A stretch of 64,000 bases of DNA from Candidatus Poribacteria bacterium (GTDB lineage: Bacteria > Poribacteria > WGA-4E > WGA-3G), in the NCBI GenBank assembly GCA_958295815.1, contig OY282374.1:514856-578855 (forward strand), in the 5' to 3' direction. Under the pieces are notes generated by a model. It saw only the letters and a list, made by a program, of their open reading frames with translations, made no database searches and had not been told where the DNA came from. Numbering within the stretch: the stretch's first letter is position 1; each line of letters starts with the position of its first letter. The position numbers and the translations under genes were made by a program. Shown piece after piece: positions 5,875 through 60,624 of this stretch.

Positions 5875-7293
5875 ATGTTGCTGACAATATCAACCACGTA
5901 TCCTCCTGCAACCGACCTCGGTTATTTGTTGCATAAACACCCATCACGAATTCAATCCTTTAAGCTCGCCTTTGGTCAAGCACACGTCTATTACCCAGAG
6001 GCACATGCTGAGAGGTGCACGGCAGCACTGCTTCTTGATGTTGATTCGGTTGGACTTACCCGCCGTCCGCACGGACAGTTCTCGGAAAATTTCGCACTGG
6101 CGCAGTACGTCAGTGATCGTCCTTACGTTGCTTCGTCGTTTTTGAGCGTCGCGATCGCGCGGGTGTTTAGCAGTGCGTTGTCGGGCAAGTGCAAAGAACA
6201 TCCAGACCTCGCTGAGACCGCTATTCCTTTACGTGCAAAATTATCCATCTTGCCATGTCGTGGAGGAGAGGAATTGTTGCGACGACTTTTCGAGCCGCTG
6301 GGTTATATAGTAGAGGCAGAACGACATGCGCTGGATGCTCAATTCTCGGATTGGGGAGAGAGCCGTTATTTTACAGTGACGCTCGAAAACACCTGTCGCT
6401 TGAGCGAACTCCTCACACATCTTTACATTCTGATGCCTGTACTTGACGACGAAAAACACTATTGGGTTGACGATGCCGAGATCGAAAAACTGTCAAGGCG
6501 TGGTAATGATTGGCTTGCTGCGCATCCAGAACAAGAATCTATTGTCCGTCGCTATTTGAAACATCAACAAGGTCTTACGCGAAAGGCACTTGCCCAATTG
6601 CGCGAAGAAGATGTTCAACAAACTGACGAGCCGATTCAGCAAGAAGCAGAAGCGCAGGTTGAAGAACGAATGGGTCTCAACGATGTCCGTTTGGCTGCGG
6701 TCACTGAAGTCCTCAAACAATGTGGCGCGAAACGTGTTCTTGATTTGGGGTGTGGTGAAGGGAAACTTCTCCGAAGGTTATTGGCTGAAGACCAGTTTGA
6801 AGAGATCGTTGGAATGGATGTTTCACATCGCGCACTAAAGATCGCGCGGGAACGACTTCGTCACGATAGGTTGCCAGAGAAACAGAAAAAACGACTTCGT
6901 CTGTTCCAAGGGTCGCTCGGATATCGAGATAAACGCTTGGTTGGATACGATGCAGCTGTGGTTGTAGAGGTAATCGAACACTTAGATTTGCCACGACTTT
7001 CGGCTTTTGAGCGGGTGCTTTTTGAATCTGCCTGCCCCCGAACCGTGCTGCTGACAACACCAAACATAGAATACAACGTGAAATTTGAGAACCTACAGGC
7101 TGGACGCTTCCGACATAAAGACCACCGTTTCGAGTGGACGCGGGACGAATTTCAGTCCTGGGCAACCAGTATTTCTAACCGCTTTGGTTATACCGTTATG
7201 TTTCATTCAATCGGACCAGAGCATGAAGACGTCGGATCACCGACACAGATGGCAGTTTTTGTCCGAGAAGGTCGGGAAGGCAAAATAACATGA
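5875..7293 (+). CDS. hen1: bacterial Hen1 3'-terminal RNA ribose 2'-O-methyltransferase
   Basis: bacterial Hen1 N-terminal domain (ATDLGYLLHKHP) plus C-terminal SAM methyltransferase (VLDLGCGEGKLL); 4-nt ATGA overlap with pnkp. Confidence 0.85.
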   Translation: MLLTISTTYPPATDLGYLLHKHPSRIQSFKLAFGQAHVYYPEAHAERCTAALLLDVDSVGLTRRPHGQFSENFALAQYVSDRPYVASSFLSVAIARVFSSALSGKCKEHPDLAETAIPLRAKLSILPCRGGEELLRRLFEPLGYIVEAERHALDAQFSDWGESRYFTVTLENTCRLSELLTHLYILMPVLDDEKHYWVDDAEIEKLSRRGNDWLAAHPEQESIVRRYLKHQQGLTRKALAQLREEDVQQTDEPIQQEAEAQVEERMGLNDVRLAAVTEVLKQCGAKRVLDLGCGEGKLLRRLLAEDQFEEIVGMDVSHRALKIARERLRHDRLPEKQKKRLRLFQGSLGYRDKRLVGYDAAVVVEVIEHLDLPRLSAFERVLFESACPRTVLLTTPNIEYNVKFENLQAGRFRHKDHRFEWTRDEFQSWATSISNRFGYTVMFHSIGPEHEDVGSPTQMAVFVREGREGKIT

Positions 7294-9854
7294 TTATGCA
7301 AATTCCTGAACCTTCACTTGTCCTCCTTATTGGACCTTCCGGTTCAGGCAAGTCCACCTTTGCACGTAAGCATTTTAAGCCGACTGAGATTCTTTCATCG
7401 GATTTCTGCCGGGGGCTTGTTTCGGACGATGAGACCGACCAAACGGTAACGAAAGATGCATTCGAAGTGCTGCGTTTCATCGCAGCGAAACGGCTCGCTG
7501 CTGGGAAACTAACGGTCGTTGATGCAACAAACGTTCAGGCGGACGCACGAAAACCTTTGCTTGCATTGGCACGCGAATATCATTACTTAACTGTTGCCAT
7601 TGTATTTGACATGCCTACAAAACTTTGTCAGGAAAGAAATGAGGCGCGGCCCGACCGCGATTTCAAATCGTATGTCATCCGCCAGCAGCGTCAGCAACTA
7701 CGCCGTTCACTGCGTGGACTCAAACGTGAAGGTTTTCGGAACTTCATCTATGTGATGTCCACATCGGAAGCCGTTGAATCTGCATGTGTTGAGCGACAAC
7801 CACTGTGGACGAATCGTAGAGACGAGCAAGGACCATTTGACATCATTGGTGATATTCACGGCTGTTTTGACGAACTTGTTGAATTGCTCAAAGAACTCGG
7901 TTATGGAATCTCAACGCAGCCGAGCGGTGAAATCGTTGTTGAGCCGCCGCAGGGCAGAAAGGCGGTTTTCGTCGGAGATTTTGTTGACCGGGGTCCAAAG
8001 GTTCCCGAAGTGTTACGCTTGGTCATGGGAATGCAAAAGACTGGTGCAGCTATCTGCGTGCCCGGAAATCATGACGTGAAACTCGTACGTGCGCTCCGCG
8101 GCAAAAATGTGAAGCAAACACACGGGTTAGCGGAATCGTTATCTCAATTAGAGAAAACACCAACCGAATTTAAGACGCAAATCGCAGAATTCCTCGATGG
8201 TTTAGTGAGCCACTACGTACTTGACGACGGAAAGTTGGTCGTCGCACACGCTGGAATGAAGGCGGAATTACAAGGTAGGGCATCGGGACGCGTCCGAGAA
8301 TTCGCAATGTATGGAGAAACCACCGGGGAAACCGATGAGTTCGGCTTACCAATTCGGGTCAATTGGGCTGACGAATATCGTGGTGCTGCGATGGTTGTCT
8401 ATGGGCACACACCAGTTGCTGAGCCGCAGTGGGTAAACCAGACAATCAACATTGATACTGGATGTGTTTTTGGTGGCAAATTGACGGCGTTGCGGTATCC
8501 CGAAAAAGAACTCGTGTCTGTTCCCGCACACCAGACCTATTATGAACCGACCAAGCCGCTTCTTGATGAAGTGAACGAACTGCCTTCAGTCAAAACGCAG
8601 GCGTATGATGATGTCTTGGATATTAATGATGTGATGGGAAAGCGCGTTATCAGCACAAGGTTACATCACAACATAACAATCCGCGAAGAGAATACGATAA
8701 CCGCGCTTGAGACGATGAGCCGTTTCGCTGTGAATCCAAAATGGCTTATATACCTTCCACCGACAATGTCCCCAACTGAAACGACAAATAGCCCCGGTTT
8801 GCTTGAACATCCAGCAGAAGGGTTCACTTATTATCGTAGGCAGGGTATATCCAATGTCATCTGGGAAGAAAAACACATGGGATCCCGCGCTGTTGTTGTC
8901 GTTTGTCGGGATCCGGAAACTGCAAAAAGGCGATTTGGTGTTATCGGGGACACCCTCGGCATCTGTTATACACGAACCGGCAGACGTTTCTTTGAGGATG
9001 CCGCAATTGAAACTGAACTGTTAAGACAGGTAAAAGAAGCAATAGACAATGCCGATTATTGGAAAATCTTCGATACAGATTGGATCTGTCTTGACTGCGA
9101 GTTAATGCCTTGGTCGGTTAAGGCTCAGGAGCTGTTACGGCAACAATACGCGCCAGTGGGCACATCAGCTCGTATCGCTTTGGGAGAAGCTGTTGTCTCC
9201 TTAGAGATTGCCGCTGAACGAGATATTGACGTGAGCCATGTATTGGATGACTATCGTCAACGCACCGAAGCAGTGGCGGAATACGTTAAGGCTTATCAGC
9301 AATACTGCTGGCAGGTACAATCTGTCGCAGACCTGAAACTGGCTCCGTTCCATCTCCTTGCGACGGAAGGTGCCGTGTATTTCGACAAAGACCATCAGTG
9401 GCACATGCAAATGCTTACGAAACTCTGTCAAAGTTCTGAGAATGACCTATTGTTTGCAACTTCCTGCGGGGTAGTTGATGTGACTGATGACGCAAGTCAG
9501 GCTGAGGCGATTCGACTGTGGGAAGAACTCACGGCGCAGGGAGGCGAAGGCACAGTCATCAAACCTCTGGATTTTGTCGTTCATGGCAAACGAGGATTGA
9601 TACAACCCGCTGTAAAATGTCGCGGTCGTGAGTATCTCCGGATAATCTATGGACCTGAGTACACCTTGCCCCAGAACTTAGAACGTCTACGTTCCCGTGG
9701 GCTCTCTCGCAAACGTGCCCTCGCGCTCCGGGAGTTTGCATTGGGCGTTGAGGCACTTGAGCGTTTCGTTCGCCGTGAACCCTTATCTCGTGTTCACGAA
9801 TGCGTTTTCGGAATTTTAGCACTCGAAAGTGAGTCGGTTGATCCAAGGCTCTGA
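7290..9854 (+). CDS. pnkp: polynucleotide kinase-phosphatase Pnkp (kinase, metallophosphoesterase and ligase-like domains)
   Basis: P-loop GPSGSGKST kinase, calcineurin-like GDIHGC...GDFVDRGP...GNHD phosphatase, long C-terminal adenylyltransferase-like domain. Confidence 0.85.
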   Translation: MIMQIPEPSLVLLIGPSGSGKSTFARKHFKPTEILSSDFCRGLVSDDETDQTVTKDAFEVLRFIAAKRLAAGKLTVVDATNVQADARKPLLALAREYHYLTVAIVFDMPTKLCQERNEARPDRDFKSYVIRQQRQQLRRSLRGLKREGFRNFIYVMSTSEAVESACVERQPLWTNRRDEQGPFDIIGDIHGCFDELVELLKELGYGISTQPSGEIVVEPPQGRKAVFVGDFVDRGPKVPEVLRLVMGMQKTGAAICVPGNHDVKLVRALRGKNVKQTHGLAESLSQLEKTPTEFKTQIAEFLDGLVSHYVLDDGKLVVAHAGMKAELQGRASGRVREFAMYGETTGETDEFGLPIRVNWADEYRGAAMVVYGHTPVAEPQWVNQTINIDTGCVFGGKLTALRYPEKELVSVPAHQTYYEPTKPLLDEVNELPSVKTQAYDDVLDINDVMGKRVISTRLHHNITIREENTITALETMSRFAVNPKWLIYLPPTMSPTETTNSPGLLEHPAEGFTYYRRQGISNVIWEEKHMGSRAVVVVCRDPETAKRRFGVIGDTLGICYTRTGRRFFEDAAIETELLRQVKEAIDNADYWKIFDTDWICLDCELMPWSVKAQELLRQQYAPVGTSARIALGEAVVSLEIAAERDIDVSHVLDDYRQRTEAVAEYVKAYQQYCWQVQSVADLKLAPFHLLATEGAVYFDKDHQWHMQMLTKLCQSSENDLLFATSCGVVDVTDDASQAEAIRLWEELTAQGGEGTVIKPLDFVVHGKRGLIQPAVKCRGREYLRIIYGPEYTLPQNLERLRSRGLSRKRALALREFALGVEALERFVRREPLSRVHECVFGILALESESVDPRL

Positions 9855-20097: not shown

Positions 20098-20712
20098 TCA
20101 AGTTTGACTTCCGAGTTTCGCTAAATGCAAAACGAGTGTCGTATTACCAATGGCGAGCACTGCGCCAACAACGGTTTGTAGAAGTGTATGCCGTTTTCGG
20201 TAAACCCGTGCCCAAGCAATCAATGGAATCAGCAAGAATAACCAACCAAATTGTGGATTAACAAGCATCACGAGTACGGTGACACATCCGGTGGCAACGC
20301 TACTGTGAAAACTAATTTTCCACATTAGGGTGATTGCGAAAAAAACGACACTGTTTGTGATATAAGCGACGCCTGCCCAGACAATTTCACGTGCCGCACC
20401 CAGTTCGTGCAATAGAAAAGTTCCCACAATCATACTGATGAGTGTACAGCATAAAGGTAGGAACCGTTCTTCTCTATTTTTCAGGTGTAGATCGCTTACT
20501 TTGGCGAACCGGACCATTACTGCTATCGACAGGGCGGGTAGGACGGTAACAAATAATACTACGATCGCCAACCACCGGAGGCTGTCTTGAGGTGCTGCAT
20601 GTTTTTCGACAACTCCGAAGGCTGTCGCAATGGGTACCAAAAAAGGGCTAAAAACGACAGAGATACACCATGCTAACCGTGCCGTAATTGTCGATAGGGT
20701 CCTGCGCGTCAT
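20098..20712 (-). CDS. PAP2-superfamily membrane phosphatase (phosphatidylglycerophosphatase-like)
   Basis: five to six TM helices, KISFHSS and RVYRKRH resembling PAP2 motifs SGH and SR...H. Confidence 0.45.
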   Translation of the reverse strand: MTRRTLSTITARLAWCISVVFSPFLVPIATAFGVVEKHAAPQDSLRWLAIVVLFVTVLPALSIAVMVRFAKVSDLHLKNREERFLPLCCTLISMIVGTFLLHELGAAREIVWAGVAYITNSVVFFAITLMWKISFHSSVATGCVTVLVMLVNPQFGWLFLLIPLIAWARVYRKRHTLLQTVVGAVLAIGNTTLVLHLAKLGSQT

Positions 20713-20719
20713 CAATTAA

Positions 20720-21730
20720 TTAGTTTGACGTTTCCAACGTTTTGAAGAAATTAACTAAGTCTGTGCCGTGTGTGCTGGCGTTGACTTTTTTATCGATTTC
20801 CAGAATTTTCCCCTCTTTATCGATAATAATAGATAATCGATCGATCCTTCCTTCAAGGACATTTGTCGCACCATATAGGAGTGAAAGATTGCGACTGGTG
20901 TCTACTAAAAGAGGGAAATTCAACTGATTTTCTTCGGAAAATCTCTGGTGTGAATCGGCGTCATTTACAGTAATTCCAAAAATCTGAGCATCGTATTCGG
21001 CAAAACTACTCGACTCATCACGGAGCGAGCAAACTTCTGCCGTTCAGCCAGTACCAAAGTCGCGCGGATAAAACGCGAGTACAACGTTCTTTTTTCCACG
21101 AAATTCACTTAATTGGTGCGTTTTACCACTGCCATCAACAGCAATAAAATCAGGGGCAGTTTGTCCGGCTTCTACCTTCGGTAGCACCTCTTTAAGCTGG
21201 ACAACCACATCTTCGCCGTGTGTTTTAGTGTTAACTTCTCTATCAATAGCACGGATGTATCCGGATTTGTCGATGATAAAAGTTGTCCGTTTTGATGCTT
21301 TGAAGTTTTCGATGATACCGCTGTACTGCGTACTCACCTCAAATTCGGTATCTGCCAATAGAGAAAAGCCGAATTTTTGCGCTGCTCTGAATTGCTTGTG
21401 TGATTCGACGGAGTCAACACTCACGCCGAAAAGCACACTATCAGTTGCTTCTATCTCGCTCAAACTATCCCGGAGCGAGTTGAGTTCGGCTGTTCAGCCA
21501 CCGGTAAAATCCTTCGGATAAAAGGCGAGAACGACATTCTTTTTACCTAAGTAATCGCTGAGATTCCGCTCAACACCTTCTTCATCTTTGAGTGTAAAAT
21601 CTGGGGCTGTCATCCCCGCTGTTAGCGTATCTGGCGTTGTCACTGCTTCCTCCCCTGAAGCTGCTGGAATTATAAGGGCTGTCATGAGGATAGCAGCCCA
21701 GACGCTCGCATTAAGCCGCGTTAGAAACAT
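20720..21730 (-). CDS. secreted tandem-domain BCP/PrxQ-type peroxiredoxin with two in-frame TGA (putative selenocysteine) codons at the peroxidatic positions
   Basis: three ORF-track pieces (21494-21832, 21044-21463, 20720-20923) share one frame; FYPKDFTGG-TGA-TAELNSLRD and FYPRDFGTG-TGA-TAEVCSLRD align to the Prx motif FYP.DFT.GC(T)xxxC.FRD; N-terminal signal peptide. Confidence 0.75.
20999..21041 (-). promoter_or_regulatory. bSECIS-like hairpin downstream of second in-frame UGA (GCUCGCUC-CGUGAU-GAGUCGAGU, outer GGCA/UGCC)
   Basis: stem-loop with apical GU; shares CUCGCUCCGNGAU with the first hairpin. Confidence 0.45.
21455..21479 (-). promoter_or_regulatory. bSECIS-like hairpin 14 nt downstream of first in-frame UGA (CUCGCUC-CGGGAUAGUUU-GAGCGAG)
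   Basis: perfect 7-bp stem with GU-containing loop read from the mRNA strand. Confidence 0.5.
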
Positions 21731-21883
21731 CACATTATGCCTCCACGAATTTTTTATCGCAAGTTTTCGGCTTACAGCTTCGCCGAAAAATATTATTATC
21801 GAAATTATACGCCAATTTCCTGTGAGTGTCAAGAAAACTCCGATCGGCGTAGCACTGTTTCGTTTTTTGATAGCCTTGTAGTC

Positions 21884-22750
21884 TTAGTTTGAAAGAATGT
21901 CATGTTCTTCAAGCCATGTCTTCAAAGGCACGTCGTCATCCTTAGGTGAAAAATGCCCATTTGCATTAGTTCCACCACCGAGAAGCTGCTGTCGAATCGG
22001 GTCATTTCGTTCAAACATCTCTTTCGGGATGGTCATGTTATCTTTGCTCCGTAGCCATCGATAGCCGTATCCATAAAAGAGTCCCTTGCGGGTGATGTCT
22101 GAATCATTTTCGCTGCGGGAATGCCATAGACGTCGGTCGAAGAAGACCGCGTCACCAGGTTTACAACAGACGGGTATTGCCCCCTTCGGAAGCGAACCGT
22201 CTGTCGGACGGTCTTCGAGTTTATTCCATAGGTGACTTCCTGGGATGATATAGAAGTTTCCGCGTCCAGGCTCTGAGCAGTCAGATAGCCAGTAGACGAC
22301 TTTGATAGAGAGACGGGGTCGAGGTGAGCTTTCCATCTCAATATTAACACGTCCACTATCCTGATGCCAGCCGAGCGGTGTCGGTTTACCACGCACTTCC
22401 TCTGGACGTGGTGGTGTAATGATGAAATGGCTGTGGTAGGAGTAGATATTCCACCCCAAAATGCCCCAGATCTTCGGAAACGTTTTATACCAGTCCAAAA
22501 TGTTCACGAAGACCTGATCTGTGCCGAGGAAGTTCGGATAGAAAAAATTGTTATGCGCAGCCAGTTGGTTTTTGGTATATGGGTCGTAACCGGCATCGAG
22601 GTGTTGTTGATAGATGTTGTCCACCCGCGTTTCGAGCCGTTCAACGAGATCTGGCGGGAGTGCATTTTCGATGATTAAATACCCATCTTCATTCATAGCA
22701 CTGCGTTGTTCATCTGTGAGCTGGTGTTGTAGATGTCTTTCGTCAAGCAT
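21884..22750 (-). CDS. phytanoyl-CoA dioxygenase (PhyH) family Fe(II)/2-oxoglutarate oxygenase
   Basis: WHQDSG...H.D double-stranded beta-helix facial triad; PhyH-like length. Confidence 0.75.
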   Translation of the reverse strand: MLDERHLQHQLTDEQRSAMNEDGYLIIENALPPDLVERLETRVDNIYQQHLDAGYDPYTKNQLAAHNNFFYPNFLGTDQVFVNILDWYKTFPKIWGILGWNIYSYHSHFIITPPRPEEVRGKPTPLGWHQDSGRVNIEMESSPRPRLSIKVVYWLSDCSEPGRGNFYIIPGSHLWNKLEDRPTDGSLPKGAIPVCCKPGDAVFFDRRLWHSRSENDSDITRKGLFYGYGYRWLRSKDNMTIPKEMFERNDPIRQQLLGGGTNANGHFSPKDDDVPLKTWLEEHDILSN

Positions 22751-22797: not shown

Positions 22798-23751
22798 TTA
22801 ATCCGGTAAAGGACCTTCTATTTGGTCCACCAAGTGAATGGAATGGATGACATCACGGAGGTCTGTGAGCGGGACTTTCCGGTTACGGACGCAATCGGCG
22901 AAGTGGCGGTGCATAGTCAGGACGCCTTCATAATTTGCTGAGTCGCGTTCATCTACACCGTCAACTTCCCAACCGCCCATAACGCTTCTGTTATTGTCCT
23001 CATAAATTTCAATTTCTTCTGGGATTTTCATGTAACAACCAATGCCGACACCGTGCAATTCGGAACGAAGCACGCGTCCACCCGATGCGCGACTCCCGAA
23101 GAGTACACCTGTGACATTATTATCAAAACGGACGAAAGCAGTGTAGAAGTTACGTTGTTCTGCAGCGAACGTGTCTCGATGCGCCGTGACTTCCACGGGT
23201 TCGCCACCTGCCATATAGCGGAGTAGATCGACGACGTGACAAACATCGTTCCAGAGGGTTGTCGTAAATTCTCGGTTCTGACCGATCATTTGCTTGTTAA
23301 AGGTGGTGACGGCTAATGTAACAGGTCCCTTTTCTGCGACCCGTCGCATTGCTTCACGGGTGACAGCGGCATATCTGCGTTGAAACCCTACCATGCAGTA
23401 GACATCGTTGGCAATCGCTGCCTCGAGTAATTGTTGTGTTTCATCGCTGTTCGCACCCGGAGGCTTCTCGATAAACATGTGCTTGCCAGCGTTAAGGCAA
23501 TCCAAGGCGGGTTGCAAAATCCACTTTTCATTCATCACGCAATAGACGACGTCTAAGTCTTCTGTGTCCAACATCTTCCTGTGATCTGTGTAGGTATGTG
23601 GGAACTCATATTTCTGTGCGACTTGTGCGAGTTTTTCTTCATCCAGTTCGCATACCGCGAGCATCTCAACATCATCTTCGAGACGGTTAACACTTGGATA
23701 ATGTGCGCCTTGACTACGTCCCCCTGCACCGATAAATCCTGCTTTAAGCAT
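22798..23751 (-). CDS. Gfo/Idh/MocA family NAD(P)-dependent oxidoreductase
   Basis: MLKAGFIGAGGRSQ Rossmann N-terminus; the longer ORF extends to 23862. Confidence 0.8.
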   Translation of the reverse strand: MLKAGFIGAGGRSQGAHYPSVNRLEDDVEMLAVCELDEEKLAQVAQKYEFPHTYTDHRKMLDTEDLDVVYCVMNEKWILQPALDCLNAGKHMFIEKPPGANSDETQQLLEAAIANDVYCMVGFQRRYAAVTREAMRRVAEKGPVTLAVTTFNKQMIGQNREFTTTLWNDVCHVVDLLRYMAGGEPVEVTAHRDTFAAEQRNFYTAFVRFDNNVTGVLFGSRASGGRVLRSELHGVGIGCYMKIPEEIEIYEDNNRSVMGGWEVDGVDERDSANYEGVLTMHRHFADCVRNRKVPLTDLRDVIHSIHLVDQIEGPLPD

Positions 23752-24006
23752 TGGGACTCTCCTTTGTCTCAATATTCGTGAAACTTTGTCCATTTTGAAG
23801 TGTCCATACTTTAGCACAAATCTAAATTGATGGCAAGAGAATTTTTCGGGGTCGGAGGGCATTTAATTTCCTGAAGTATAGGTCAAAAAGTTTGATTCTC
23901 TGAATGTTTTGTGGTATTCTCTTAACACCACATTAATTTTCAGGCAATCGAGCGTACTATATTCGTAGAACCGCTTGGAACCGAACCGATTGGTAAGGAG
24001 ACACTC

Positions 24007-24825
24007 ATGCCAGTTTTTGATGCAGAAGCCTTAGAATTTTGGGAAGAGAATGGTTACGTTGTTGTGCCAGAAGCCGTCCCTCTTGAGAACTGCCGCGCTG
24101 CGGAACAAGCCGTTTGGGATTTTCTTGAAATGGATCGTGACGATCCAGACAGTTGGTATCCTGACCCACCGCGTCGGAGTATCATGGTAGAGATTTATCA
24201 GCACCAAGCCTTGTGGGATAATCGCCAATACCCGCGTATACATCAGGCTTTCTCAGAAATTTGGGAAAACGAGAAACTTTGGGTTAGTTTTGATCGCGCA
24301 AGCATGAATCCACCTGAACGTTCGGATTGGAAATTCACCGGACCTTACTTGCATTGGGATATGTCGTTGGACGATATGCCGGTGCGTTTAAAGGTACAAG
24401 GTGTGCTGTATCTGGCAGATACACCCGGCAATCAGGGGGCATTCACCTGCATTCCAGGGTTCCATCGGAAATTGGAGTCATGGTTAGATGACCTGCCTGC
24501 CGATACCAATCCACGGGAAGTCGTGCGAGACTACCAAGCCGAAGCGGTTCCGGTTGCCGGGAAAGCCGGTGATCTTGTAATCTGGCACAGTGCATTGCCA
24601 CACGGTAGTAGCCCGAATTCTGCCGAGCGTCCGCGGATGGCGCAATACATAACGATGTCACCAGCACCAACGAACGGAAATCCTGAGTCCCGGATTACCG
24701 GATGGCGCGAACGATTAACAGGTCTCGGCAAAGAGGCGAAAGAGAAGGAACATTACCAGGGGAAGACAGCCGAGTTGACACCTTTAGGGGAAAGACTCCT
24801 TGGGCTTGAATCGTGGGATGTCTGA
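24007..24825 (+). CDS. phytanoyl-CoA dioxygenase (PhyH) family protein
   Basis: PhyH-like N-terminus and HWDMS...H.H.S core. Confidence 0.7.
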   Translation: MPVFDAEALEFWEENGYVVVPEAVPLENCRAAEQAVWDFLEMDRDDPDSWYPDPPRRSIMVEIYQHQALWDNRQYPRIHQAFSEIWENEKLWVSFDRASMNPPERSDWKFTGPYLHWDMSLDDMPVRLKVQGVLYLADTPGNQGAFTCIPGFHRKLESWLDDLPADTNPREVVRDYQAEAVPVAGKAGDLVIWHSALPHGSSPNSAERPRMAQYITMSPAPTNGNPESRITGWRERLTGLGKEAKEKEHYQGKTAELTPLGERLLGLESWDV

Positions 24826-24913
24826 TGCGTCTTTAGTAGTTAAGTTAAATAGATAGGGTGGGTGCTGTGCCCGCTCACTGGTGTCCAGCTGGTGCATGAA
24901 GGAGATTTGCATC

Positions 24914-26206
24914 ATGACAGATTTATTGGCAGCACGGGCACAGATGGCAATGTCTCTCGCGTTTCACATTATTTTTGCAGCAGTCGGTATCGCAATGCCG
25001 CTGCTAATGGTGATTGCGGAGGGATTGTGGCTTAAAACGCGAGAAGAGGTATACCTGACGCTGGCGAAGCAGTGGGCAAAAGGCACCGCTGTGATGTTCG
25101 CTGTTGGTGCCGTCTCTGGGACCGTCCTATCTTTTGAACTCGGCTTGTTGTGGCCCAATTTCATGGCTTACGCCGGTCCAATCATCGGAATGCCGTTTTC
25201 GCTGGAAGGGTTGGCGTTTTTCGTTGAAGCAATCTTTTTAGGGCTTTATCTCTACGGTTGGGATCGCATCCCAAAATATGCACACTGGTTCGCTGGTATG
25301 ATGGTGCTGCTCGGCGGTACGTTTTCGGGCATCTTCGTTGTTACCGCGAATGCTTGGATGAATACACCCACCGGCTTTTCGATTGTCAATGGTGAAGTGA
25401 CAGACATCGATCCGATTGCGGCGATGCTCAATCCCTCCTCGTTCAGCCAAGCACTCCACATGACCATTGCTGCTTTTCTCGCTGTCGGATTTGCAGTGGC
25501 TGGTATTCACGCCTATTTCCTCAGACGCGATCCAAATAACCTTTTCCATCGCCGAGCATTCGCTATTGCGTTAAGTGTCGGCGCGGTGTTCGCACTCCTC
25601 CAACCAATTTCGGGAGACATCAGTGCTAAGAAATTGGCTAAGTATCAACCCGTTAAGCTCGCCGCAATGGAGGCGCAATGGGAGACAGAGCGTGGCGCGC
25701 CCTTACGCATTGGTGGTATTCCTAACGAGGATACTGAAGAAACCCGATATGCCCTTGAGATTCCGAAGGCACTCAGTTTCCTCGCACATTCCGACTTCAA
25801 CGCTGAGATTATGGGACTCAAGGCGGTCCCACGCGAAAATCGTCCACCTGTGGCAATTGTGCATTTCGCATTTCAGATTATGGTGGCGTGTGGGATTGTG
25901 TTGATTACCGCTGGTGTGCTCGGCGGTTGGCTGGCGTGGAGACGAAAAGGTCTGCCAAGCCAACCTTGGTATCTTCGATTTGTCACGTTCTGCACACCAC
26001 TTGGATTTATTGCGATTGAAGCAGGCTGGACGGTCACGGAGGTCGGACGGCAACCGTGGGTTATCTATGGTCTGATGCGTACAGCAGATGCGGTAACGCC
26101 AATGCCAAACCTTGTTGTTCCGTTTGTCAGTTTTACGGTGCTTTACATTTTTCTCTCAATTATTGTTTTCATATTATTACGCCGTCTTATTTTTACCTCA
26201 GTTTAG
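24914..26206 (+). CDS. cydA: cytochrome bd ubiquinol oxidase subunit I
   Basis: MTDLLAARAQMAMSLAFHIIFAAVGI...Q-loop; RBS aggag upstream of 24914. Confidence 0.9.
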   Translation: MTDLLAARAQMAMSLAFHIIFAAVGIAMPLLMVIAEGLWLKTREEVYLTLAKQWAKGTAVMFAVGAVSGTVLSFELGLLWPNFMAYAGPIIGMPFSLEGLAFFVEAIFLGLYLYGWDRIPKYAHWFAGMMVLLGGTFSGIFVVTANAWMNTPTGFSIVNGEVTDIDPIAAMLNPSSFSQALHMTIAAFLAVGFAVAGIHAYFLRRDPNNLFHRRAFAIALSVGAVFALLQPISGDISAKKLAKYQPVKLAAMEAQWETERGAPLRIGGIPNEDTEETRYALEIPKALSFLAHSDFNAEIMGLKAVPRENRPPVAIVHFAFQIMVACGIVLITAGVLGGWLAWRRKGLPSQPWYLRFVTFCTPLGFIAIEAGWTVTEVGRQPWVIYGLMRTADAVTPMPNLVVPFVSFTVLYIFLSIIVFILLRRLIFTSV

Positions 26207-26273
26207 AGACGGATGGTTTGCTGTCAGAGGATCCAGAACTTGTGCTTGTAGCGAGACTTAGTGGAGGGATTTT

Positions 26274-27314
26274 GTGTTTACACTTGAATTCTGCGTCGCT
26301 GGCGTGATGCTTATCTCCCTCGTTATCTATATGTTGACAGGTGGTGCTGATTTTGGCGGTGGGATTTGGGATCTGTTTGCGACGGGTCGCCGTGCAAAAG
26401 CGCAGCGTTCACTTATCATGGAAGCCATCGCTCCGATCTGGGAAGCCAACCATGTCTGGTTAATTGTGATTGTTGTGCTGCTCTTCGTGGCATTTCCGGT
26501 CGCATTCGCGTCGATTAGTACGGCTTTACATATTCCATTGACATTGATGCTCGTGGGTATTGTGCTTCGCGGCTCAGCGTTTGTGTTTCGGACCTACGAT
26601 GTCCAATCGGATACGACACATCGCCGTTGGAGCCGGATGTTCGCCGTCGCAAGTGCTATTACACCTATCATGTTAGGAATTACGTTAGGGGCGGTTGCGT
26701 CCGGCGCGATTCACGTTGACGTGGAGAGTGGACAAGTGGACACCGACTTTATCTCAGCGTGGTTTGCCCCGTTTCCGTTTGCAATCGGTTTTTTCACCTT
26801 GACGCTCTGTGCCTTCCTTGCGGCGGTGTATCTCACGCTAGAGACTGAGGATTCGGGATTAAAAGAGGATTTTCGGCGACGCGCACTCATCGCGGCGGTG
26901 AGTGTTGGGGCAATGGCAGGACTGAGTTTTCTCTTATCTGCTGAAGGCGCGCCAATGATTCGGCAGGGACTCAGTGGTGCCCCTTGGTCGATCCCGTTTC
27001 ATATTTTGACGGGTGCGGTAGCTCTGTGGGCAATCTGGACGATTTGGAAACGTCAATTTCGCCTTGCGTGTATTCTTGTTCCGATACAGGTTACACTGAT
27101 TGTTTTCGGCTGGGGACTTGCACAGTATCCATATCTTGTTACACCCGACTTAACCTTTTCAAACGTAGCTGCACCGGATGCTGTGTTGCGTCCAATGTTG
27201 ATTATATTAGGTGTCGGTGGGGTTCTGTTGGCACCTGCATTCTGGTATCTTTACGCTGTATTTAAGGGCGCGTCTCGAAAAACGAATGATGCTCCAGAGC
27301 AACTTGATACTTGA
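26274..27314 (+). CDS. cydB: cytochrome bd ubiquinol oxidase subunit II
   Basis: GADFGGGIWDL and IAPIWEANHVWLIV CydB motifs. Confidence 0.9.
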   Translation: MFTLEFCVAGVMLISLVIYMLTGGADFGGGIWDLFATGRRAKAQRSLIMEAIAPIWEANHVWLIVIVVLLFVAFPVAFASISTALHIPLTLMLVGIVLRGSAFVFRTYDVQSDTTHRRWSRMFAVASAITPIMLGITLGAVASGAIHVDVESGQVDTDFISAWFAPFPFAIGFFTLTLCAFLAAVYLTLETEDSGLKEDFRRRALIAAVSVGAMAGLSFLLSAEGAPMIRQGLSGAPWSIPFHILTGAVALWAIWTIWKRQFRLACILVPIQVTLIVFGWGLAQYPYLVTPDLTFSNVAAPDAVLRPMLIILGVGGVLLAPAFWYLYAVFKGASRKTNDAPEQLDT

Positions 27315-36187: not shown

Positions 36188-36958
36188 ATGGATTTAGGAT
36201 TAAAAGACAAAGTGGTGGTTGTAACAGGTGCGAGTCGCGGGATCGGACGTGCGATCGCACACAGTTTCGCTGATGAAGCGGCGCGCCTGAGTATTTGTGG
36301 CAGAACCGAAGATACACTCCAAAGCGTAACGAGTGAACTCACGGCAAAAGGCGCACAAGTCTTCGCAAAACTCACGGATGTCACAGATACAGGTCAAGTT
36401 GAGGCATTTGTAACGGAAACGCTGGAAACGTATGGCAGGATTGATGTTGTTGTGAACAACGTAGGTGGTAGCCGATGGACCCCTTTAGAAGATATTTCGG
36501 ATACCGAGTGGCACGAGATTTTCGATCTGAACCTGGTTTCTGCAGCACGGGTTAACCAACTCGCGATCCCTGAGATGAAGAAGCAAGGCAGTGGCGTGAT
36601 TCTGATGATTACTTCCATCTACGGCAGGGAGGGTGGTGGACACATTACATATAACGCCGCGAAAGCCGCCGAAATCAGTATGACAAAATCGTTGGCAAGA
36701 GAACTCGCACCGGACAATATCCGTGTAAATAGTGTCGCACCCGGTTCGATTCTCTTTCCGGGCGGCGGTTGGGCGCGCCGGATAGCAGCGGATCCAGAAG
36801 CGATGGAAGCCTTTGTGAAGAGCGATATGCCGTTGGGTAGGTTTGGGAAACCTGAAGAGATTGCGAATGTTGTTGTCTTTCTTGCCTCCGAACGGGCGAG
36901 TCTTGTAACGGGTGCCTGTGTGAACGTTGATGGGTGCCAGACGCACTCAAATATTTGA
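36188..36958 (+). CDS. SDR-family oxidoreductase (3-oxoacyl-ACP reductase-like)
   Basis: TGASRGIGRAIA Rossmann motif and downstream Y..xK catalytic region. Confidence 0.85.
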   Translation: MDLGLKDKVVVVTGASRGIGRAIAHSFADEAARLSICGRTEDTLQSVTSELTAKGAQVFAKLTDVTDTGQVEAFVTETLETYGRIDVVVNNVGGSRWTPLEDISDTEWHEIFDLNLVSAARVNQLAIPEMKKQGSGVILMITSIYGREGGGHITYNAAKAAEISMTKSLARELAPDNIRVNSVAPGSILFPGGGWARRIAADPEAMEAFVKSDMPLGRFGKPEEIANVVVFLASERASLVTGACVNVDGCQTHSNI

Positions 36959-36982
36959 TGTGTCTTGTAGGTAGGTTGGTAT

Positions 36983-37028
36983 GCGGATTATCTCAGCTCA
37001 TTTTTTGTGAGATTATCCGCATTTTTTC
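36983..37028 (+). terminator. rho-independent terminator after the SDR gene
   Basis: perfect 13-bp inverted repeat gcggattatctca/tgagattatccgc followed by attttttcc. Confidence 0.65.
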
Positions 37029-37230
37029 CTTAACATCCTACAACTTTTGAAACTACCGTAGTAGGACTCGTAAACAACTTCTATTTTTCCAGTTGTAGTC
37101 GTTTTTCAGAAAAAAACGGCTCTTCTGTTTATCTTGATAGTGTACGCTTGTGTTCCGGTCATGCCGTGGTAAAGGATACCTTAAGATTTCAGTAGCAATT
37201 TCAACATAAACACTGCTTGTTGTTCGGCAT

Positions 37231-37245
37231 TGGCACGAAACTTGC
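37231..37245 (+). promoter_or_regulatory. sigma-54 (-24/-12) promoter TGGCAC-gaaac-TTGC
   Basis: exact consensus read from sequence. Confidence 0.55.
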
Positions 37246-37406
37246 CTAAGTACTAACATAGTTTGAACACAATGTTCTTGCTAACGAAACTCTAAGTGCT
37301 AACTTTACCTAAAAGGATGACTGAAAATGAAGATTATCTACGTTTTACTCACAACGAATAAGAAATCTTCGACGTAATGTAATTGGGCTGTTACAGAATA
37401 AATATA

Positions 37407-37482
37407 GGGAAACCAGTCTATGTACTGTTCTTGCAGAGAGGATATGTCTTTGCAAGATGAAACGTAGAACAGGTTTCCCTTT
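37407..37482 (+). other. long imperfect hairpin (gggaaacc...ggtttccc) followed by ttt; candidate terminator of a sigma-54-dependent small transcript
   Basis: 8-bp outer stem plus nested inner stems (ctgttc/gaacag, cttgca/tgcaag), T-run after 3' arm. Confidence 0.35.
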
Positions 37483-37797
37483 AGCATTTAAAAGGGGACT
37501 TTCTGTTTTATGGGATCTTGAGCGCGATGTGGAGTATTGCTTGGGTGGATACGTCAAAGTAGTGGAGTTAGCTGCGTCAATAAGACGTATTGCGTCAAAA
37601 TAGCGTGGTTAAAAATCGGTTTGAATTCGTAGCAATAATGGGGTTACGAGCGAGACTTTTATTCTTCAGTTTCAGGAAAACATCTCTTCTTTTTTTCCTG
37701 AATCGAGTGTTTACTTGTGTTTTAGGCACATCATAGTCGAAAAGACGTTTACGATTGTAACAGTTTTGACACAAATATTATGCTATGTTCAAGGGAA

Positions 37798-37812
37798 TGG
37801 CACGAAATTTGC
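37798..37812 (+). promoter_or_regulatory. sigma-54 promoter TGGCAC-gaaat-TTGC about 110 nt upstream of ORF 37925
   Basis: exact consensus read from sequence. Confidence 0.55.
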
Positions 37813-37924
37813 TCTATCAGTTTTATAGTATCATTATGAGAAACCATATACAACGTAGTTAACGTTGGTCAATCATCAGGAACAATGTCACATACTGGAT
37901 CTCTGAATCACAATTCTATAGAGT

Positions 37925-38701
37925 ATGATACCTGGTATAATACTATCGCCAATCCTTAATGAAGAGGGTAGGAGCAGGTGGGCAAAAATCTGCCTATTCC
38001 ACATTCACAGTGAGGTGAAACAAGTGAGAATTGTCATATATACAGCCGGTATTCTTGTCGTCTTAGCGGTTGCATGGACACTGTATCTTAACCTCGGCTT
38101 AAAAGACTTTGAAGCAAGGCTTTCACAGGTTCCTGCGTCTCCCACAACTCCACAGGAGACCTCGCAGGAGACAAAAGTTAGTGAGAGTGATACACAGCCT
38201 GAAACGGAAGTATCCAGTGATGTTTTGGAATTTGATGAGGCTGCTACTGTTGAAGATGTTTACCCGAAAATGGAATCAGAAGAGGATCAAGACTCCCTCG
38301 TTATCTGGACAGACTCGGATACCGAATCGTCCATTGATGCCGAAACAGCGATCGTTGAAGCACCTTTAACTCTTAACGAGGGCACACCGGTAGCAACAGT
38401 TGTGGGTCCCTGTGGTGAAATCTGCGAACCGTCGGAATCGAGTGTAGATATTCTAAGTCTCTCCAAGAATGAGCAGCGTGAGTTCTTCCGTGAAGGCTTG
38501 ATAAGGCGGTTCGGTGATATTCCTGAAGTCCACGTTTTCATTCATTACATGGAACTTGCACACAGTCATCAAACGATTTCAGAGAAAGAGGCTCTGGAAA
38601 ATGCCCGCGCGATTGCCACTCTGTTTCCAAATGAGGCAAACAAAAGACATCTCCAAGAAATGGAGTTGCATGTGGCGTCAAGTAGGGCAACGCGGAGATA
38701 G
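37925..38701 (+). CDS. hypothetical membrane-anchored acidic protein (single TM, Ser/Thr/Glu/Asp-rich extracytoplasmic region); start uncertain
   Basis: TM helix IVIYTAGILVVLAVAWTLYL followed by a low-complexity acidic region; no recognisable domain. Confidence 0.45.
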   Translation: MIPGIILSPILNEEGRSRWAKICLFHIHSEVKQVRIVIYTAGILVVLAVAWTLYLNLGLKDFEARLSQVPASPTTPQETSQETKVSESDTQPETEVSSDVLEFDEAATVEDVYPKMESEEDQDSLVIWTDSDTESSIDAETAIVEAPLTLNEGTPVATVVGPCGEICEPSESSVDILSLSKNEQREFFREGLIRRFGDIPEVHVFIHYMELAHSHQTISEKEALENARAIATLFPNEANKRHLQEMELHVASSRATRR

Positions 38702-42755: not shown

Positions 42756-43925
42756 ATGAGTTTCAGTGTTTTTGAACTATTAACGTACGAAAGAATGATT
42801 TTTTTCGCAATTTTGAGCTGTGGACTTTATGCCAGTTACACTGATTTCCGCTACGGGAAAATCGCTAACGGTTACACCGTGTTTTTAATCGGCTTTGGTA
42901 TAATCTGTCAAATGGTATTCGTAAGTGAAGGAGACATCACCTGGATACACAGTTGTGTTACCCTTTTCGGTGGATTAGGTATCTCTTTTGTATTGTTTTA
43001 TACCGGGATATGGGCAGCTGGGGATGCTAAACTGTTTTGGGGTATCAGTTTACTGATGCCACCGAGTGCTTTTACCCGTACCCCGGAGACGCAATTTTAT
43101 CCGTTGATCTTGATGGTGAATATTTTTCTCCTTTTTTTGGTCTATATCACATTACAGTCCGTCTATAAATTGACCTTTCAACAGCAGCGGATGCTGATTG
43201 TCAAAGGTTTTGTTGCACAAGCAAAGCAATTTCCGAAACGCCTTCTTCAGGTGCTTTCTTATGTCGGTGTAAGTGGACTGGCTTTTTATATTCCCGCACA
43301 CCTTGGTATAGAGTTAGATGTCGCAATCCGCATAGCTCTATTCATAGCGATTGCTTTTGCTTTCAATAGAGTAGTTGAAAAGTACATCCCTCAGAAATAC
43401 AGAATCACATTTCATATTCCGTTTCTCCTTTTAGCTCTCTTTTTGGCTATCCCTTCGCTAATTCAACTCGGTATTTTTATCGTCATTATCTTTGTTTTTC
43501 CATGGTTTCTAATCATGTTTGACTCTGTAGTCCGTTCCGTTTTTACAAAACAGGTTCCTATTGAAAGTCTTCGTCCTAACATGATCCCTGCGGAACGCAT
43601 CGTCAAAATTGAAGGACAAAACATGGACGATAAATACGTGAAAACTCCTGCAGGTTTTGCAAATCCGGCGCGAGATAGCATTATTGTGGATGTTTCATCT
43701 GAAGGGTTAACATCGCCCCAGGTTGAGCACTTGCGCCAACTTGCTGCAGAAGGTAGTTTGAAGGAATACGAAAATAGACTGCTTATTCAGGAAAAAATCC
43801 CATTTGCTTTGATGATTGTTTTGGGCGGCTTAGTGACACTACCTGCAAAGGGGATTGCTTATTCGTTTTTTCAGAGTGCAGAGATGCATCAGGTTTTGGA
43901 GAGAATAGGTTCGTTCTTTTCTTGA
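42756..43925 (+). CDS. A24-family (CpaA/TadV-type prepilin peptidase-like) aspartyl protease domain fused to a long C-terminal membrane/soluble extension
   Basis: YTDFRYGKIAN (first catalytic Asp motif D-x-R-x-x-x-I-P/A-N) and WAAGDAKLF (GGGDVKL-like second Asp); 389 aa versus about 170 aa for CpaA. Confidence 0.5.
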   Translation: MSFSVFELLTYERMIFFAILSCGLYASYTDFRYGKIANGYTVFLIGFGIICQMVFVSEGDITWIHSCVTLFGGLGISFVLFYTGIWAAGDAKLFWGISLLMPPSAFTRTPETQFYPLILMVNIFLLFLVYITLQSVYKLTFQQQRMLIVKGFVAQAKQFPKRLLQVLSYVGVSGLAFYIPAHLGIELDVAIRIALFIAIAFAFNRVVEKYIPQKYRITFHIPFLLLALFLAIPSLIQLGIFIVIIFVFPWFLIMFDSVVRSVFTKQVPIESLRPNMIPAERIVKIEGQNMDDKYVKTPAGFANPARDSIIVDVSSEGLTSPQVEHLRQLAAEGSLKEYENRLLIQEKIPFALMIVLGGLVTLPAKGIAYSFFQSAEMHQVLERIGSFFS

Positions 43926-44771
43926 TTAAAAAATAGCTGGAGTAATCGAGAATATTTACCTTACGTTACTCTCTGGTGTTTTTTGCCTTTGAGTTCTTGG
44001 GTATCCGTACTCTACAAATCTTATCATGTACGGATGATATATAATGACTGTCCCTCCTTGTATACATATCCTCCGTACCTACCACTTGTCACTCACCTTA
44101 CATATTTCCTTCTATTAATTGTGGATTCCACAAGGAAATGCCGATATACAAATCAATAGTGGAACAACTTTGGAGTATATGGGCAATTGACTTGCTATGC
44201 AATCCTTTCTATGCGTGAAATTTTTGCAGAATTTTATGGTATATAGTGGTAATTTTTGCGTGCTAATATCGGAAATGAATTACAAATGAATTTCATTATA
44301 ATGTTTTCAAGAAAAGATAATTACTTTGTTTCTTTTTGATAAACCCAGTGTGTGTCTGTGTTTTAGGGGAGTCTAAGCAATAAATATATACCATTATATG
44401 ATTTTTATATAAATAATGTATATTTATATATCAATTGGCACTAAATTTGCTTGTCTTAATATAGCAGTTCTCACTAAATTTGCATGCTTTTATTAACAAG
44501 GGCGTACTTTGATTTTAATTGAATAAAGTTGTTATCGACTGTGTGTAACTTTCTGAGGAATATATTTGCGGTGTTGATTGCTGATAGTTATCAGTGAAGT
44601 TGTTTTCGTCATAGATATTCAACTGGAAACAACGGTTTCTGACTCACCACTCATACGCGCTAAGTCCTTGAATCAAACTTACATTCGCAAGGAGCGCGCA
44701 TTGCAACGTGACAGGCAGTGAATTTCTTGAACCTGTTCAAAAGCATTAGATGAATCGGGTAGTGTGTAAAA
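43926..44771. other. about 850-bp AT-rich non-coding island (A/T tracts, sigma-54 promoter) upstream of a sigma-54 activator gene
   Basis: no credible ORF; very low GC; direct repeat cactaaatttgc x2. Confidence 0.6.
44436..44450 (+). promoter_or_regulatory. sigma-54 promoter TGGCAC-taaat-TTGC
   Basis: exact consensus; a degenerate second copy (ctcactaaatttgc) lies 40 nt downstream. Confidence 0.55.
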
Positions 44772-54289: not shown

Positions 54290-54415
54290 TAGCAGGCACA
54301 CTCCGCTGTGCCGTCACATAGTAGCAGGCACACTCCGCTGTGCCGTAAAAGTAGTAGGCACACTCCGTTCTGCCGTCACATAGTAGTAGGCACACTCCGC
54401 TGTGCCGTTCACAAA
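54286..54415. repeat. four tandem copies of hairpin repeat family B (tagtagcaggcacactccgctgtgccgtcaca) between convergent genes
   Basis: 32-nt unit x4, each with hairpin ggcaca-ctccgc-tgtgcc (third copy mutated to gttctgcc). Confidence 0.85.
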
Positions 54416-59811: not shown

Positions 59812-60624
59812 CTATGAGGTCGGGTTCGTTGGTGTTCCAGCATCCATCACAAGAGGAAAATGGTCACCTACCAATTTATCACCATCGTTAACGGTAACAA
59901 AAGGTTTCATAACGTGGCTTCCGCTGGCATCGTATAGCGTTTCACCTGTCATATAATGCACTGCAATCGCACGCCGAGGACTACCACTGGTGTTGTCGTG
60001 CGAACCGTGCCATGTTAAGGAGTGATGGTAATGAACGTGTCCTTTCGGTACCGGGCAGAGTTCCACGGCTAATTCGTTATCTTCAAAGTGGTCGGGCATG
60101 GAATGGATGTCCTTGACGGAATGCAGAAACCCAATCTGATTGCCCCAATGATAAGAGCCAGGGACCATACGCATACATCCATTACTTTCATCAACATCGT
60201 CCAAGGCGACCCAAGCACTTACCTGACTCGTTTTTGGCGTAAGAATCGGCCAATACGGTGAATCCTGATGCCACATATTTACACCGCCCACTTTCGGTGG
60301 TTTATATTGGATCTGGTCGTGCCAGACGCGTAACTCTGTTGCTGATGTTAGTTGCCCGATTTCTTCTACGATAATTGGGTTATAAACGAGTCGATGGTAG
60401 GCTGGACTCGCCTCCCAAATGTTAACAACTTGCCAGACTGGACTCTCTTCTTTGCGACCGAGATTAGCGATGTGCACCGGCTGCGAAATATCCGCTTTCT
60501 CGTAATCGTCAATAACACGTGCCAATTCTGACCGTAGTTCCTCAACCTGATCATCGCTTAAAACACGGCTTCCAAGGAGAAAGCCTTTCTCACGAAATGT
60601 GTCAACTTGGGTTTGGTTGAGCAT
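59812..60624 (-). CDS. phytanoyl-CoA dioxygenase family protein (tandem paralog 1)
   Basis: WHQDSPYW...ALDD...HYHH...WHGSHDN; about 85% identical to the neighbour. Confidence 0.75.
   Translation of the reverse strand: MLNQTQVDTFREKGFLLGSRVLSDDQVEELRSELARVIDDYEKADISQPVHIANLGRKEESPVWQVVNIWEASPAYHRLVYNPIIVEEIGQLTSATELRVWHDQIQYKPPKVGGVNMWHQDSPYWPILTPKTSQVSAWVALDDVDESNGCMRMVPGSYHWGNQIGFLHSVKDIHSMPDHFEDNELAVELCPVPKGHVHYHHSLTWHGSHDNTSGSPRRAIAVHYMTGETLYDASGSHVMKPFVTVNDGDKLVGDHFPLVMDAGTPTNPTS

Follow-up and report, generated by a model that had tools for sequence, protein, structure and literature searches.

Gene organization of the locus

The DNA analysed here is a 64-kb stretch from Candidatus Poribacteria, referred to as the window, and all positions follow its numbering. 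It carries on the minus strand a gene for a tandem peroxiredoxin whose reading frame contains two TGA codons. Translation of 21733..20717 gives a single frame of 336 codons between the ATG at 21730 and the TAA at 20722..20720, and this frame is broken solely by TGA at codon 79 (21496..21494) and at codon 229 (21046..21044). An earlier interpretation made from the letters of the DNA, called here the sequence-only reading, had described three minus-strand open reading frames (ORFs) that share one frame and are split by TGA codons, and the arrangement is as it described. With U standing for selenocysteine (Sec) at each TGA, the surrounding peptides read FYPKDFTGG-U-TAELNSLRD at codon 79 and FYPRDFGTG-U-TAEVCSLRD at codon 229. 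The elements of the gene are listed below, including two hairpins that resemble selenocysteine insertion sequences (SECIS); all lie on the minus strand.

20720..21730, minus strand: whole tandem peroxiredoxin gene, including the two UGA (Sec) codons; stop codon TAA at 20722..20720
21653..21730, minus strand: predicted signal peptide, codons 1-26, MFLTRLNASVWAAILMTALIIPAASG, cleaved before EE; Sec-pathway type, from hydropathy
21248..21616, minus strand: peroxiredoxin domain 1 (AhpC-TSA) with catalytic P72, T76, U79 and R148, and Asn at +5; from Pfam and alignment
21494..21496, minus strand: first in-frame UGA (UGA-1, codon 79), which occupies the peroxidatic site of domain 1; TGA in 91/91 distinct orthologous genes
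21455..21479, minus strand: SECIS-like hairpin 1, starting 14 nucleotides (nt) after UGA-1; from folding, RNAalifold and a synonymous trough
20780..21169, minus strand: peroxiredoxin domain 2 (AhpC-TSA/Redoxin) with P222, U229, C234 (+5) and R298, and Gly226 at the Thr position; from Pfam and alignment
21044..21046, minus strand: second in-frame UGA (UGA-2, codon 229), which occupies the peroxidatic site of domain 2; TGA in 91/91 genes
20998..21042, minus strand: SECIS-like hairpin 2, with a conserved core at 21032..21006; from folding and comparative data
21029..21031, minus strand: Cys234, the sole Cys of the protein and predicted resolving residue of domain 2 (U-x4-C); Cys in 89/91 genes

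Peroxiredoxin domains and the position of the UGA codons

When Cys is put for the two stops, Pfam recognizes two AhpC-TSA domains (PF00578, E=2.7e-68) at residues 39-161 and ~188-317, each spanning a TGA. The two stretches score 228 bits against a cutoff of 26. The best NCBIfam model is the BCP-type thiol peroxidase NF006960 (176 bits; cutoff 140). Domains 1 and 2 share 46% identity. An AlphaFold2 model of an 88%-identical orthologue, P0001, is confident over the whole chain, with a predicted local distance difference test score of 92.7 and a predicted template modelling score of 0.88. Its best matches in the PDB are BCP, BcpB, Bcp1/4, AhpE and PrxQ, and each of these spans one domain.

In the alignment, the position of codon 79 is occupied by Cys in the AhpE of M. 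tuberculosis and by Ser in the solved Bcp1 chain of S. solfataricus. Cys is also found at the position aligned with UGA-1 in the tandem homologues P0021, P0023 and P0024. The first of these is a Cys-form tandem of 375 residues with 32% identity, which has TGC at both sites, C-x4-C in both domains and an N-terminal hydrophobic leader. The sequence-only reading placed both TGA codons at the peroxidatic Cys, and both do align with the Cys of BCP/AhpE structures and of the Cys-form tandem homologues.

Conservation of the UGA codons across relatives

A scan of one genome per species returns 80 loci with 65-88% identity, 77 of them labelled Candidatus or uncultured Poribacteria and three ‘uncultured bacterium’. 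A metagenome scan adds 23 further loci, 20 of which hold the gene at 43-81% identity. TGA stands at both positions in 96/96 related loci that cover both, which represent 91 distinct genes with protein identity down to ~45-50%. The Cys codons TGC and TGT occur at either site in none of the 96. Read errors, which had been named earlier as a possible source of the two codons, are excluded by these ~96 independent assemblies.

The third codon position of the 91 genes has an entropy of ~1.2 bits compared with 0.2-0.5 at the first and second positions, and this is seen before, between and after the TGA codons. Since coding periodicity extends beyond the TGA codons, translation continues past both. 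The locus thus holds one conserved frame with two conserved UGA codons at Cys-equivalent positions and with coding constraint beyond each of them.

The majority of public annotations present this gene differently. Gene callers report middle fragments of 126-140 amino acids named ‘peroxiredoxin’ in at least 278 protein clusters, and an internal TTG could start the middle ORF. This would fit three short genes or a decaying pseudogene, in which the TGA codons are true stops and the products are truncated peroxiredoxin fragments. Such fragments would cut the thioredoxin fold exactly at the active site, as both Pfam domains span a TGA. The active-site residues Arg148 and Arg298, each downstream of a TGA, are invariant, which tells against truncated fragments. 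Both TGA codons and the full frame are retained in the 91 genes despite their divergence, with purifying selection after each TGA, and the constrained hairpins described below are located exactly where SECIS elements are expected. Fragmentation or decay is therefore very improbable. The sequence-only reading had itself raised truncated genes as a possible outcome of a homologue comparison, and no truncation is seen among the homologues.

Hairpins downstream of the UGA codons

After each UGA comes a conserved hairpin whose codons are under synonymous constraint and whose loop has G in second position. The hairpins start 12-14 nt after the UGA. At both sites the 5′ arm CUCGCUC is contributed by Ser-Leu codons and the loop begins CG(G/U)GAU, 21 nt after the UGA. 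The 3′ arms differ, being GAGCGAG with an 11-nt loop at site 1 and GAG-U-CGAG with a 6-nt loop and a bulge at site 2. Hairpin 1 has a 7-bp stem, CUCGCUC/GAGCGAG, closing the loop CGGGAUAGUUU with G at loop position 2, and folds at -10.6 kcal/mol compared with -4.7 +/- 2.2 for shuffles. The core of hairpin 2 is composed of the arm (UU)GCUCGCUC, the loop CGUGAU and the bulged arm GAG-U-CGAG(UAG). The RNA 3′ of UGA-2 has a folding energy of -21.8 kcal/mol in the window (z -3.4 to -3.8). The lower stem of this hairpin is specific to the window genome and its close relatives, and the core pairs are invariant. The bacterial SECIS rule of a G at the first or second loop position, as quoted in PMC13582414, describes both hairpins.

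The case for these elements relies on synonymous-site constraint and on folding-energy profiles, covariation at site 2 not being significant. All 25 of the lowest 10-codon windows of synonymous-codon entropy lie directly 3′ of the two TGA codons. The trough at site 1 covers codons 81-94 (permutation p=3e-5), and that at site 2 has p=2.7e-4. Leu86 and Leu236 are encoded by CTC in 91/91 genes, Ser91 by AGC in 85/85 and Leu90 by TTG in 89/91, while elsewhere in the gene the Leu and Ser columns show three to six codons. The mean folding energy of 45-nt windows over the 91 genes is -7.2 across the gene (standard deviation 2.0). It falls to -13.7 at codons 230-231, the overall minimum, and to -11.4 at codon 78.

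The one variable stem position of site 2 (column 21 with column 34) pairs in 78/79 sequences as G.U, A-U or U-A. An RNAalifold consensus of the 78-sequence sponge clade agrees with the hairpin structures. When RNAalifold is run on all site-1 sequences the hairpin is not recovered, because divergent members use a shifted 3′ arm; as read from their sequences, site 1 in these members takes the register of site 2. In the single Cys-form control, P0021, the RNA 3′ of the TGC codons has no unusual or constrained hairpin.

Genetic code and selenocysteine machinery

TGA is the commonest stop in the window. It ends 21 of the 55 long ORFs, with TAA and TAG ending 17 each. The genes ispE and pnkp, cited by the sequence-only reading as ending in ordinary TGA stops, do so, as does hen1. 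There are no other credible genes with in-frame TGA in the 64 kb. As TGA is an ordinary stop and no other credible gene in the window contains it in frame, recoding is local and does not reflect an alternative genetic code, which is the view that had been taken before.

The other candidates for read-through in the window proved to be look-alikes, and all were rejected. Among them, a QueA gene is followed in the same frame by a YajC-like ORF (14937-16289, minus strand) with a single TGA between them, and these are two ordinary genes. The pair is a useful false-positive control for scans that search for TGA recoding.

A genome-wide code in which TGA is a sense codon, for Trp (code 4) or Gly (code 25), would account for the full-length public predictions P0001-P0017, which have W at both Sec positions. 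At the DNA level this W corresponds to TGA in the orthologous loci, and all 17 predictions are found on contigs of 4.2 kb or less. The W calls are probably an artefact of a code-4 gene model, chosen on short contigs for giving the longest gene. Trp at a peroxidatic position is functionally senseless, and the high frequency of TGA stops and the lack of other genes with in-frame TGA in the window also oppose such a code. It is the least probable of the explanations considered, with next to no likelihood. The Trp-bearing predictions are a trap when such sequences are aligned. Taken with the fragments, they amount to a systematic annotation error in which hundreds of public assemblies hold either fragments or Trp at both active sites.

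Evidence for the Sec machinery comes from published work. Table S4 of Slaby et al. 2017 gives COG counts of SelA=2, SelB=1 and SelD=1 for Ca. Poribacteria WGA-3G, and a locus from the WGA-3G genome (L050) carries the present gene with both TGA codons. The same study found SelA and SelB to be enriched in sponge symbionts. A 2026 survey places Poribacteria among the phyla with Sec-type [NiFeSe] hydrogenases.

It could be argued that the UGA codons are recoded through SECIS and SelB, with the residue inserted being Cys, delivered by an allo-tRNA of the tRNA(ReC) type, or another residue from near-cognate read-through, so that an ordinary Cys or Trp tandem peroxiredoxin is made and no selenoprotein. 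tRNA(ReC) molecules with UCA or GCA anticodons have been reported to recode UGA given a SECIS, according to work cited in PMC13582414. However, plain TGC would give Cys at no cost, yet this one-step change is seen in 0/96 loci, an argument against Cys as the inserted residue. WGA-3G is reported to have SelA and SelD, both required for Sec alone. Insertion of a residue other than Sec is thus unlikely.

Active-site residues and the N-terminal leader

The motif of domain 1, P72-x3-T76-x2-U79, corresponds to the PxxxT/SxxC(U) signature and is invariant in 91/91 genes. The active-site Arg is likewise present in 91/91 genes in both domains (R148 and R298). The motif of domain 2, P222-x3-G226-x2-U229, encoded within 21020-21070 on the minus strand, departs from the signature, with Gly at U-3 in 83/91 genes; the catalytic Thr is kept at this position only by eight marine relatives. 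The Sec, Arg and +5 Cys of domain 2 are strictly conserved despite the change from Thr to Gly. Domain 2 has the peroxiredoxin fold, yet it is not a canonical or textbook peroxidatic site in the sponge-associated clade.

A resolving Cys five residues after the peroxidatic residue is found in domain 2 (C234, 89/91 genes) and not in domain 1 of the window. The +5 residue of domain 1 varies over the 91 genes, being Cys in 43, Gln in 21, Asn in 19 and other residues in the rest. The assignment of the +5 Cys to domain 2 and of Asn to domain 1 in the sequence-only reading was correct. The motifs U-T-A-E-L-N and U-T-A-E-V-C are of the U-x4-C type and not the thioredoxin-like UxxC type. The UxxC or UxxU motif of the peroxiredoxin-like thiol:disulfide oxidoreductase selenoproteins is absent from both.

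A related tandem variant (locus L104, 10001-10999, and locus L105; proteins P0018-P0020) has no signal peptide. Its domain 1 is catalytically dead, with Ser in place of Sec and the Arg lost, and its domain 2 retains the +5 Cys, the TGA and a Thr three residues before it. In the sponge clade the pattern of degeneration is the opposite.

In the window protein, the leader before EE combines a hydrophobic core with a basic residue and a cleavage site of the AxA type. Of the 13 full-length family members compared, 12 have such a core, with a 12-residue mean Kyte-Doolittle hydropathy of 2.0-3.2, and a cleavage site of the AxA/ASG type. No lipobox or twin-arginine motif is present in the leader. These features suggest that the tandem peroxiredoxin is exported by the Sec pathway. 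The signal peptide proposed earlier therefore corresponds to a conserved N-terminal signal-like segment, with export itself a prediction.

Proposed mechanism and interpretation

The gene is best interpreted as a single UGA-recoded selenoprotein gene, coding for an exported, internally duplicated BCP/PrxQ-type peroxiredoxin with Sec at both peroxidatic positions. The probability of this reading is put at roughly 0.85; confidence in the detailed enzymology is lower.

In the mechanism envisaged, each UGA would rely on an intragenic SECIS hairpin of its own, which recruits SelB with Sec-tRNA(Sec) to read the codon, and the ribosome would meanwhile translate the codons of that hairpin (S-L-R-D...). 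The signal peptide would then direct a mature protein of ~310 residues across the inner membrane. There, the selenolate of U79, assisted by P72, T76 and R148, may attack H2O2 or an organic hydroperoxide, yielding a selenenic acid. U229 of domain 2 could form a selenenylsulfide with C234 through the U-x4-C arrangement, as in the atypical 2-Cys BCPs, and this bond would be recycled by a postulated periplasmic reductant of the thioredoxin fold. Domain 1 would act as a 1-Sec enzyme in the window genome given its Asn at +5, with U-x4-C predicted in about half of the orthologues. The tandem may go back to one Sec-containing domain that was duplicated along with its SECIS. The identity between the two domains and their common SECIS arm point to this origin.

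Several observations weigh against this interpretation. Taken alone, the site-1 hairpin of the window does not stand out from shuffled sequences (z -0.4 to -1.9), and site 2 has a long lower stem that is not conserved. A formal count of pair covariation at site 2 gives values no better than those of shuffles and without significance, as its core stem shows no variation. No SECIS family match is returned by Rfam at gathering or permissive thresholds, the sole hit being a chance one to a small RNA (E=3.2). No selA, selB or selD is found in the 64-kb window (Pfam scans of ~55 window ORFs) or in ~1.8 Mb of related loci, and ARAGORN finds no tRNA-Sec in the window and 103 loci. The Sec-machinery evidence is second-hand and covers one related genome, WGA-3G. 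Of the four components that the sequence-only reading had proposed to look for, SelA, SelB and SelD are thus on record for that genome, and tRNA-Sec was not seen in the sequences scanned. Export is predicted from hydropathy only, the recycling reductant is a postulated one, and the lack of the catalytic Thr from domain 2 in 83/91 genes makes peroxidase activity of that domain uncertain.

This last point allows for a division of labour, in which domain 1 is the peroxide-reducing selenoenzyme and domain 2 is a non-peroxidase selenol/thiol module for resolving or relay, comparable to a fused thioredoxin. The idea follows from domain 1 having the full tetrad with a dispensable resolving Cys and domain 2 lacking the Thr while keeping U-x4-C. 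It is a tentative proposal, with a rather low likelihood. If it were true, the protein would work outside the cytoplasm as a self-contained redox relay with two selenium sites, perhaps together with the PAP2-like protein encoded downstream. Returning to the two-Sec peroxiredoxin as such, the change from Thr to Gly in domain 2 poses a testable question as to the capability of a Sec active site without the canonical peroxiredoxin Thr.

Genomic context

The sequence-only reading had set the gene between a PhyH gene and a PAP2 phosphatase gene. The PhyH gene (21884-22750) upstream, a PAP2-like ORF downstream and a 4-nt spacer, TTAA, between the latter and the peroxiredoxin gene are all present. 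The flanking features are as follows.

21740..21744, minus strand: Shine–Dalgarno sequence GGAGG, 9 nt 5′ of the ATG at 21730; direct sequence reading
21804..21832, minus strand: predicted sigma-70-type promoter TTGACA-17 nt-TATAAT in the PhyH-peroxiredoxin intergenic region, 12/12 match; from consensus match only
20098..20715, minus strand: ORF of a PAP2-like membrane protein, co-oriented, 4 nt downstream; PF01569 at 22.2 bits, below the cutoff of 27.2

At least 51 of 94 loci have a TTGACA...TATAAT match upstream of their orthologue. In 85/94 loci the peroxiredoxin gene is followed within 4 kb by the PAP2-like gene in the same orientation, and in 6/9 compared loci that carry it the PAP2-like gene starts 1-4 nt after the peroxiredoxin stop. 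From this arrangement, it is a likely operon partner. The PAP2-like protein has 205 amino acids, and the His/Arg motifs SFHS and ARxxxxxHxxxQ are present in it together with the sub-cutoff Pfam score. Genes for PhyH, GFO/IDH/MocA, YebC and RuvA are also syntenic with the peroxiredoxin gene. An exact-sequence look-up of the neighbouring PhyH protein finds nothing on record.

On the opposite strand beside the peroxiredoxin-PAP2 pair, a 274-amino acid ORF (19233-20057, plus strand) without a Pfam or NCBIfam match is conserved in 73 loci. The genes cydA and cydB of a cytochrome bd oxidase (24881-27314, plus strand) are located two genes from the peroxiredoxin and are syntenic in a minority of loci only. 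Four paralogues of the PhyH-family dioxygenases occur within the 64 kb (21884-22750, 24007-24825, 59812-60624 and 60646-61458), along with three GFO/IDH/MocA oxidoreductases (22798-23862, 54409-55458 and 61530-62564). Two related COGs, COG5285 and COG0673, reach very high counts under Poribacteria WGA-3G in the COG table by Slaby et al.

Elsewhere in the window, a Hen1 (Hen1_L and methyltransferase) and Pnkp (kinase-phosphatase-ligase) RNA-repair pair at 5875-9854 (plus strand) overlaps by 4 nt, and both genes end in TGA. A 650-amino acid protein with DUF6785 and DUF6784 (E=3e-150) is encoded at 11185-13137 (minus strand). Two intergenic gaps of ~0.85-1 kb have no long ORF (36958-37925 and 43925-44772).

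Comparison with known systems

Sec-containing peroxiredoxins of the COG1225/Bcp type, with a TxxU motif, have been described from marine metagenomes by Zhang, Fomenko and Gladyshev 2005 (PMC1088965) and in the Global Ocean Sampling (GOS) analysis (PMC2398784). A 2026 review (PMC13188914) enters the peroxiredoxin as PF00578, TxxU, with one Sec. The window protein resembles this marine family in its Pfam domain, the PxxxTxxU motif of domain 1, the use of Sec for the peroxidatic Cys, the marine origin and the intragenic SECIS after the UGA. The marine proteins are listed with one Sec in one domain, whereas the window protein has two peroxiredoxin domains, each with its own Sec and SECIS. It also differs in having a predicted signal peptide and in the loss of the Thr of TxxU from domain 2. 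The fusion reported in the GOS study joins a peroxiredoxin to a non-peroxiredoxin domain, a PP2C-type phosphatase, and not to a second peroxiredoxin, as far as the consulted part of that study goes.

Literature searches, with subscription journals and databases such as BSepDB outside their scope, returned no double selenoprotein of two peroxiredoxins and no further selenoprotein from Poribacteria. The sequence-only reading had called a duplicated peroxiredoxin with two Sec residues unusual. This stands for the tandem two-Sec architecture, which is new, and does not extend to Sec-containing BCP-type peroxiredoxins, which are already known as an abundant family. What is new is the tandem form with two Sec residues, two SECIS elements and a predicted signal peptide, together with its conservation across Poribacteria and the loss of the catalytic Thr in domain 2. 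These features would add an exported two-Sec, two-SECIS subfamily to the peroxiredoxin selenoproteins. The gene also supplies direct gene-level evidence that Sec use is conserved across the sponge-symbiont phylum Poribacteria, in more than 80 species representatives.

Each domain superposes on BCP, PrxQ and AhpE structures with a target template modelling (TM) score of 0.84-0.90 and with identity of up to ~38% over a domain. The structures compared were E. coli BCP (9a4d_B), M. tuberculosis BcpB (5epf) and AhpE (1xvw), S. solfataricus Bcp1 (3drn) and Bcp4 (3hjp), and PrxQ of Xanthomonas and Xylella (5ima/3ixr). The catalytic P/T/C(U)/R set is held in common with these proteins, as is the C-x4-C arrangement of the atypical 2-Cys BCPs. 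The solved proteins are single-domain and use Cys, unlike the window protein, and no PDB chain covers both domains (query TM ~0.44). PrxU of Eubacterium acidaminophilum is likewise a peroxiredoxin with Sec at the peroxidatic position. It is of a different peroxiredoxin class, and the window protein is not a member of its model, NF040737, scoring 110 bits against an equivalog cutoff of 270.

Bacterial proteins with several Sec residues make up a small minority of the 119 families and subfamilies that have been catalogued. Examples with more than one UGA-encoded Sec per polypeptide, the arrangement proposed for the window protein, are MbdU, MduS, the methyltransferase/UXPK-star fusions and the UXXU group 4 [NiFeSe] hydrogenases (PMC13188914, PMC13582414). 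These belong to protein families other than the peroxiredoxins. In the UXXU hydrogenases the UGA codons are 3 codons apart and, according to the authors, one SECIS possibly serves both. In the window gene they are 150 codons apart, and each has its own copy of a duplicated SECIS.

The Cys-form tandem BCP-BCP protein P0021 shares the two-domain architecture and the N-terminal hydrophobic leader. Unlike the window gene, it has TGC codons and no constrained or unusually stable downstream hairpin. An extracytoplasmic selenium peroxidase could matter for how the symbiont handles oxidants in sponge tissue. The two SECIS copies amount to a natural experiment in which the arm CUCGCUC is combined with 3′ arms of differing register and with loops of unequal length, and they could inform SECIS models and the recognition of these elements by SelB.

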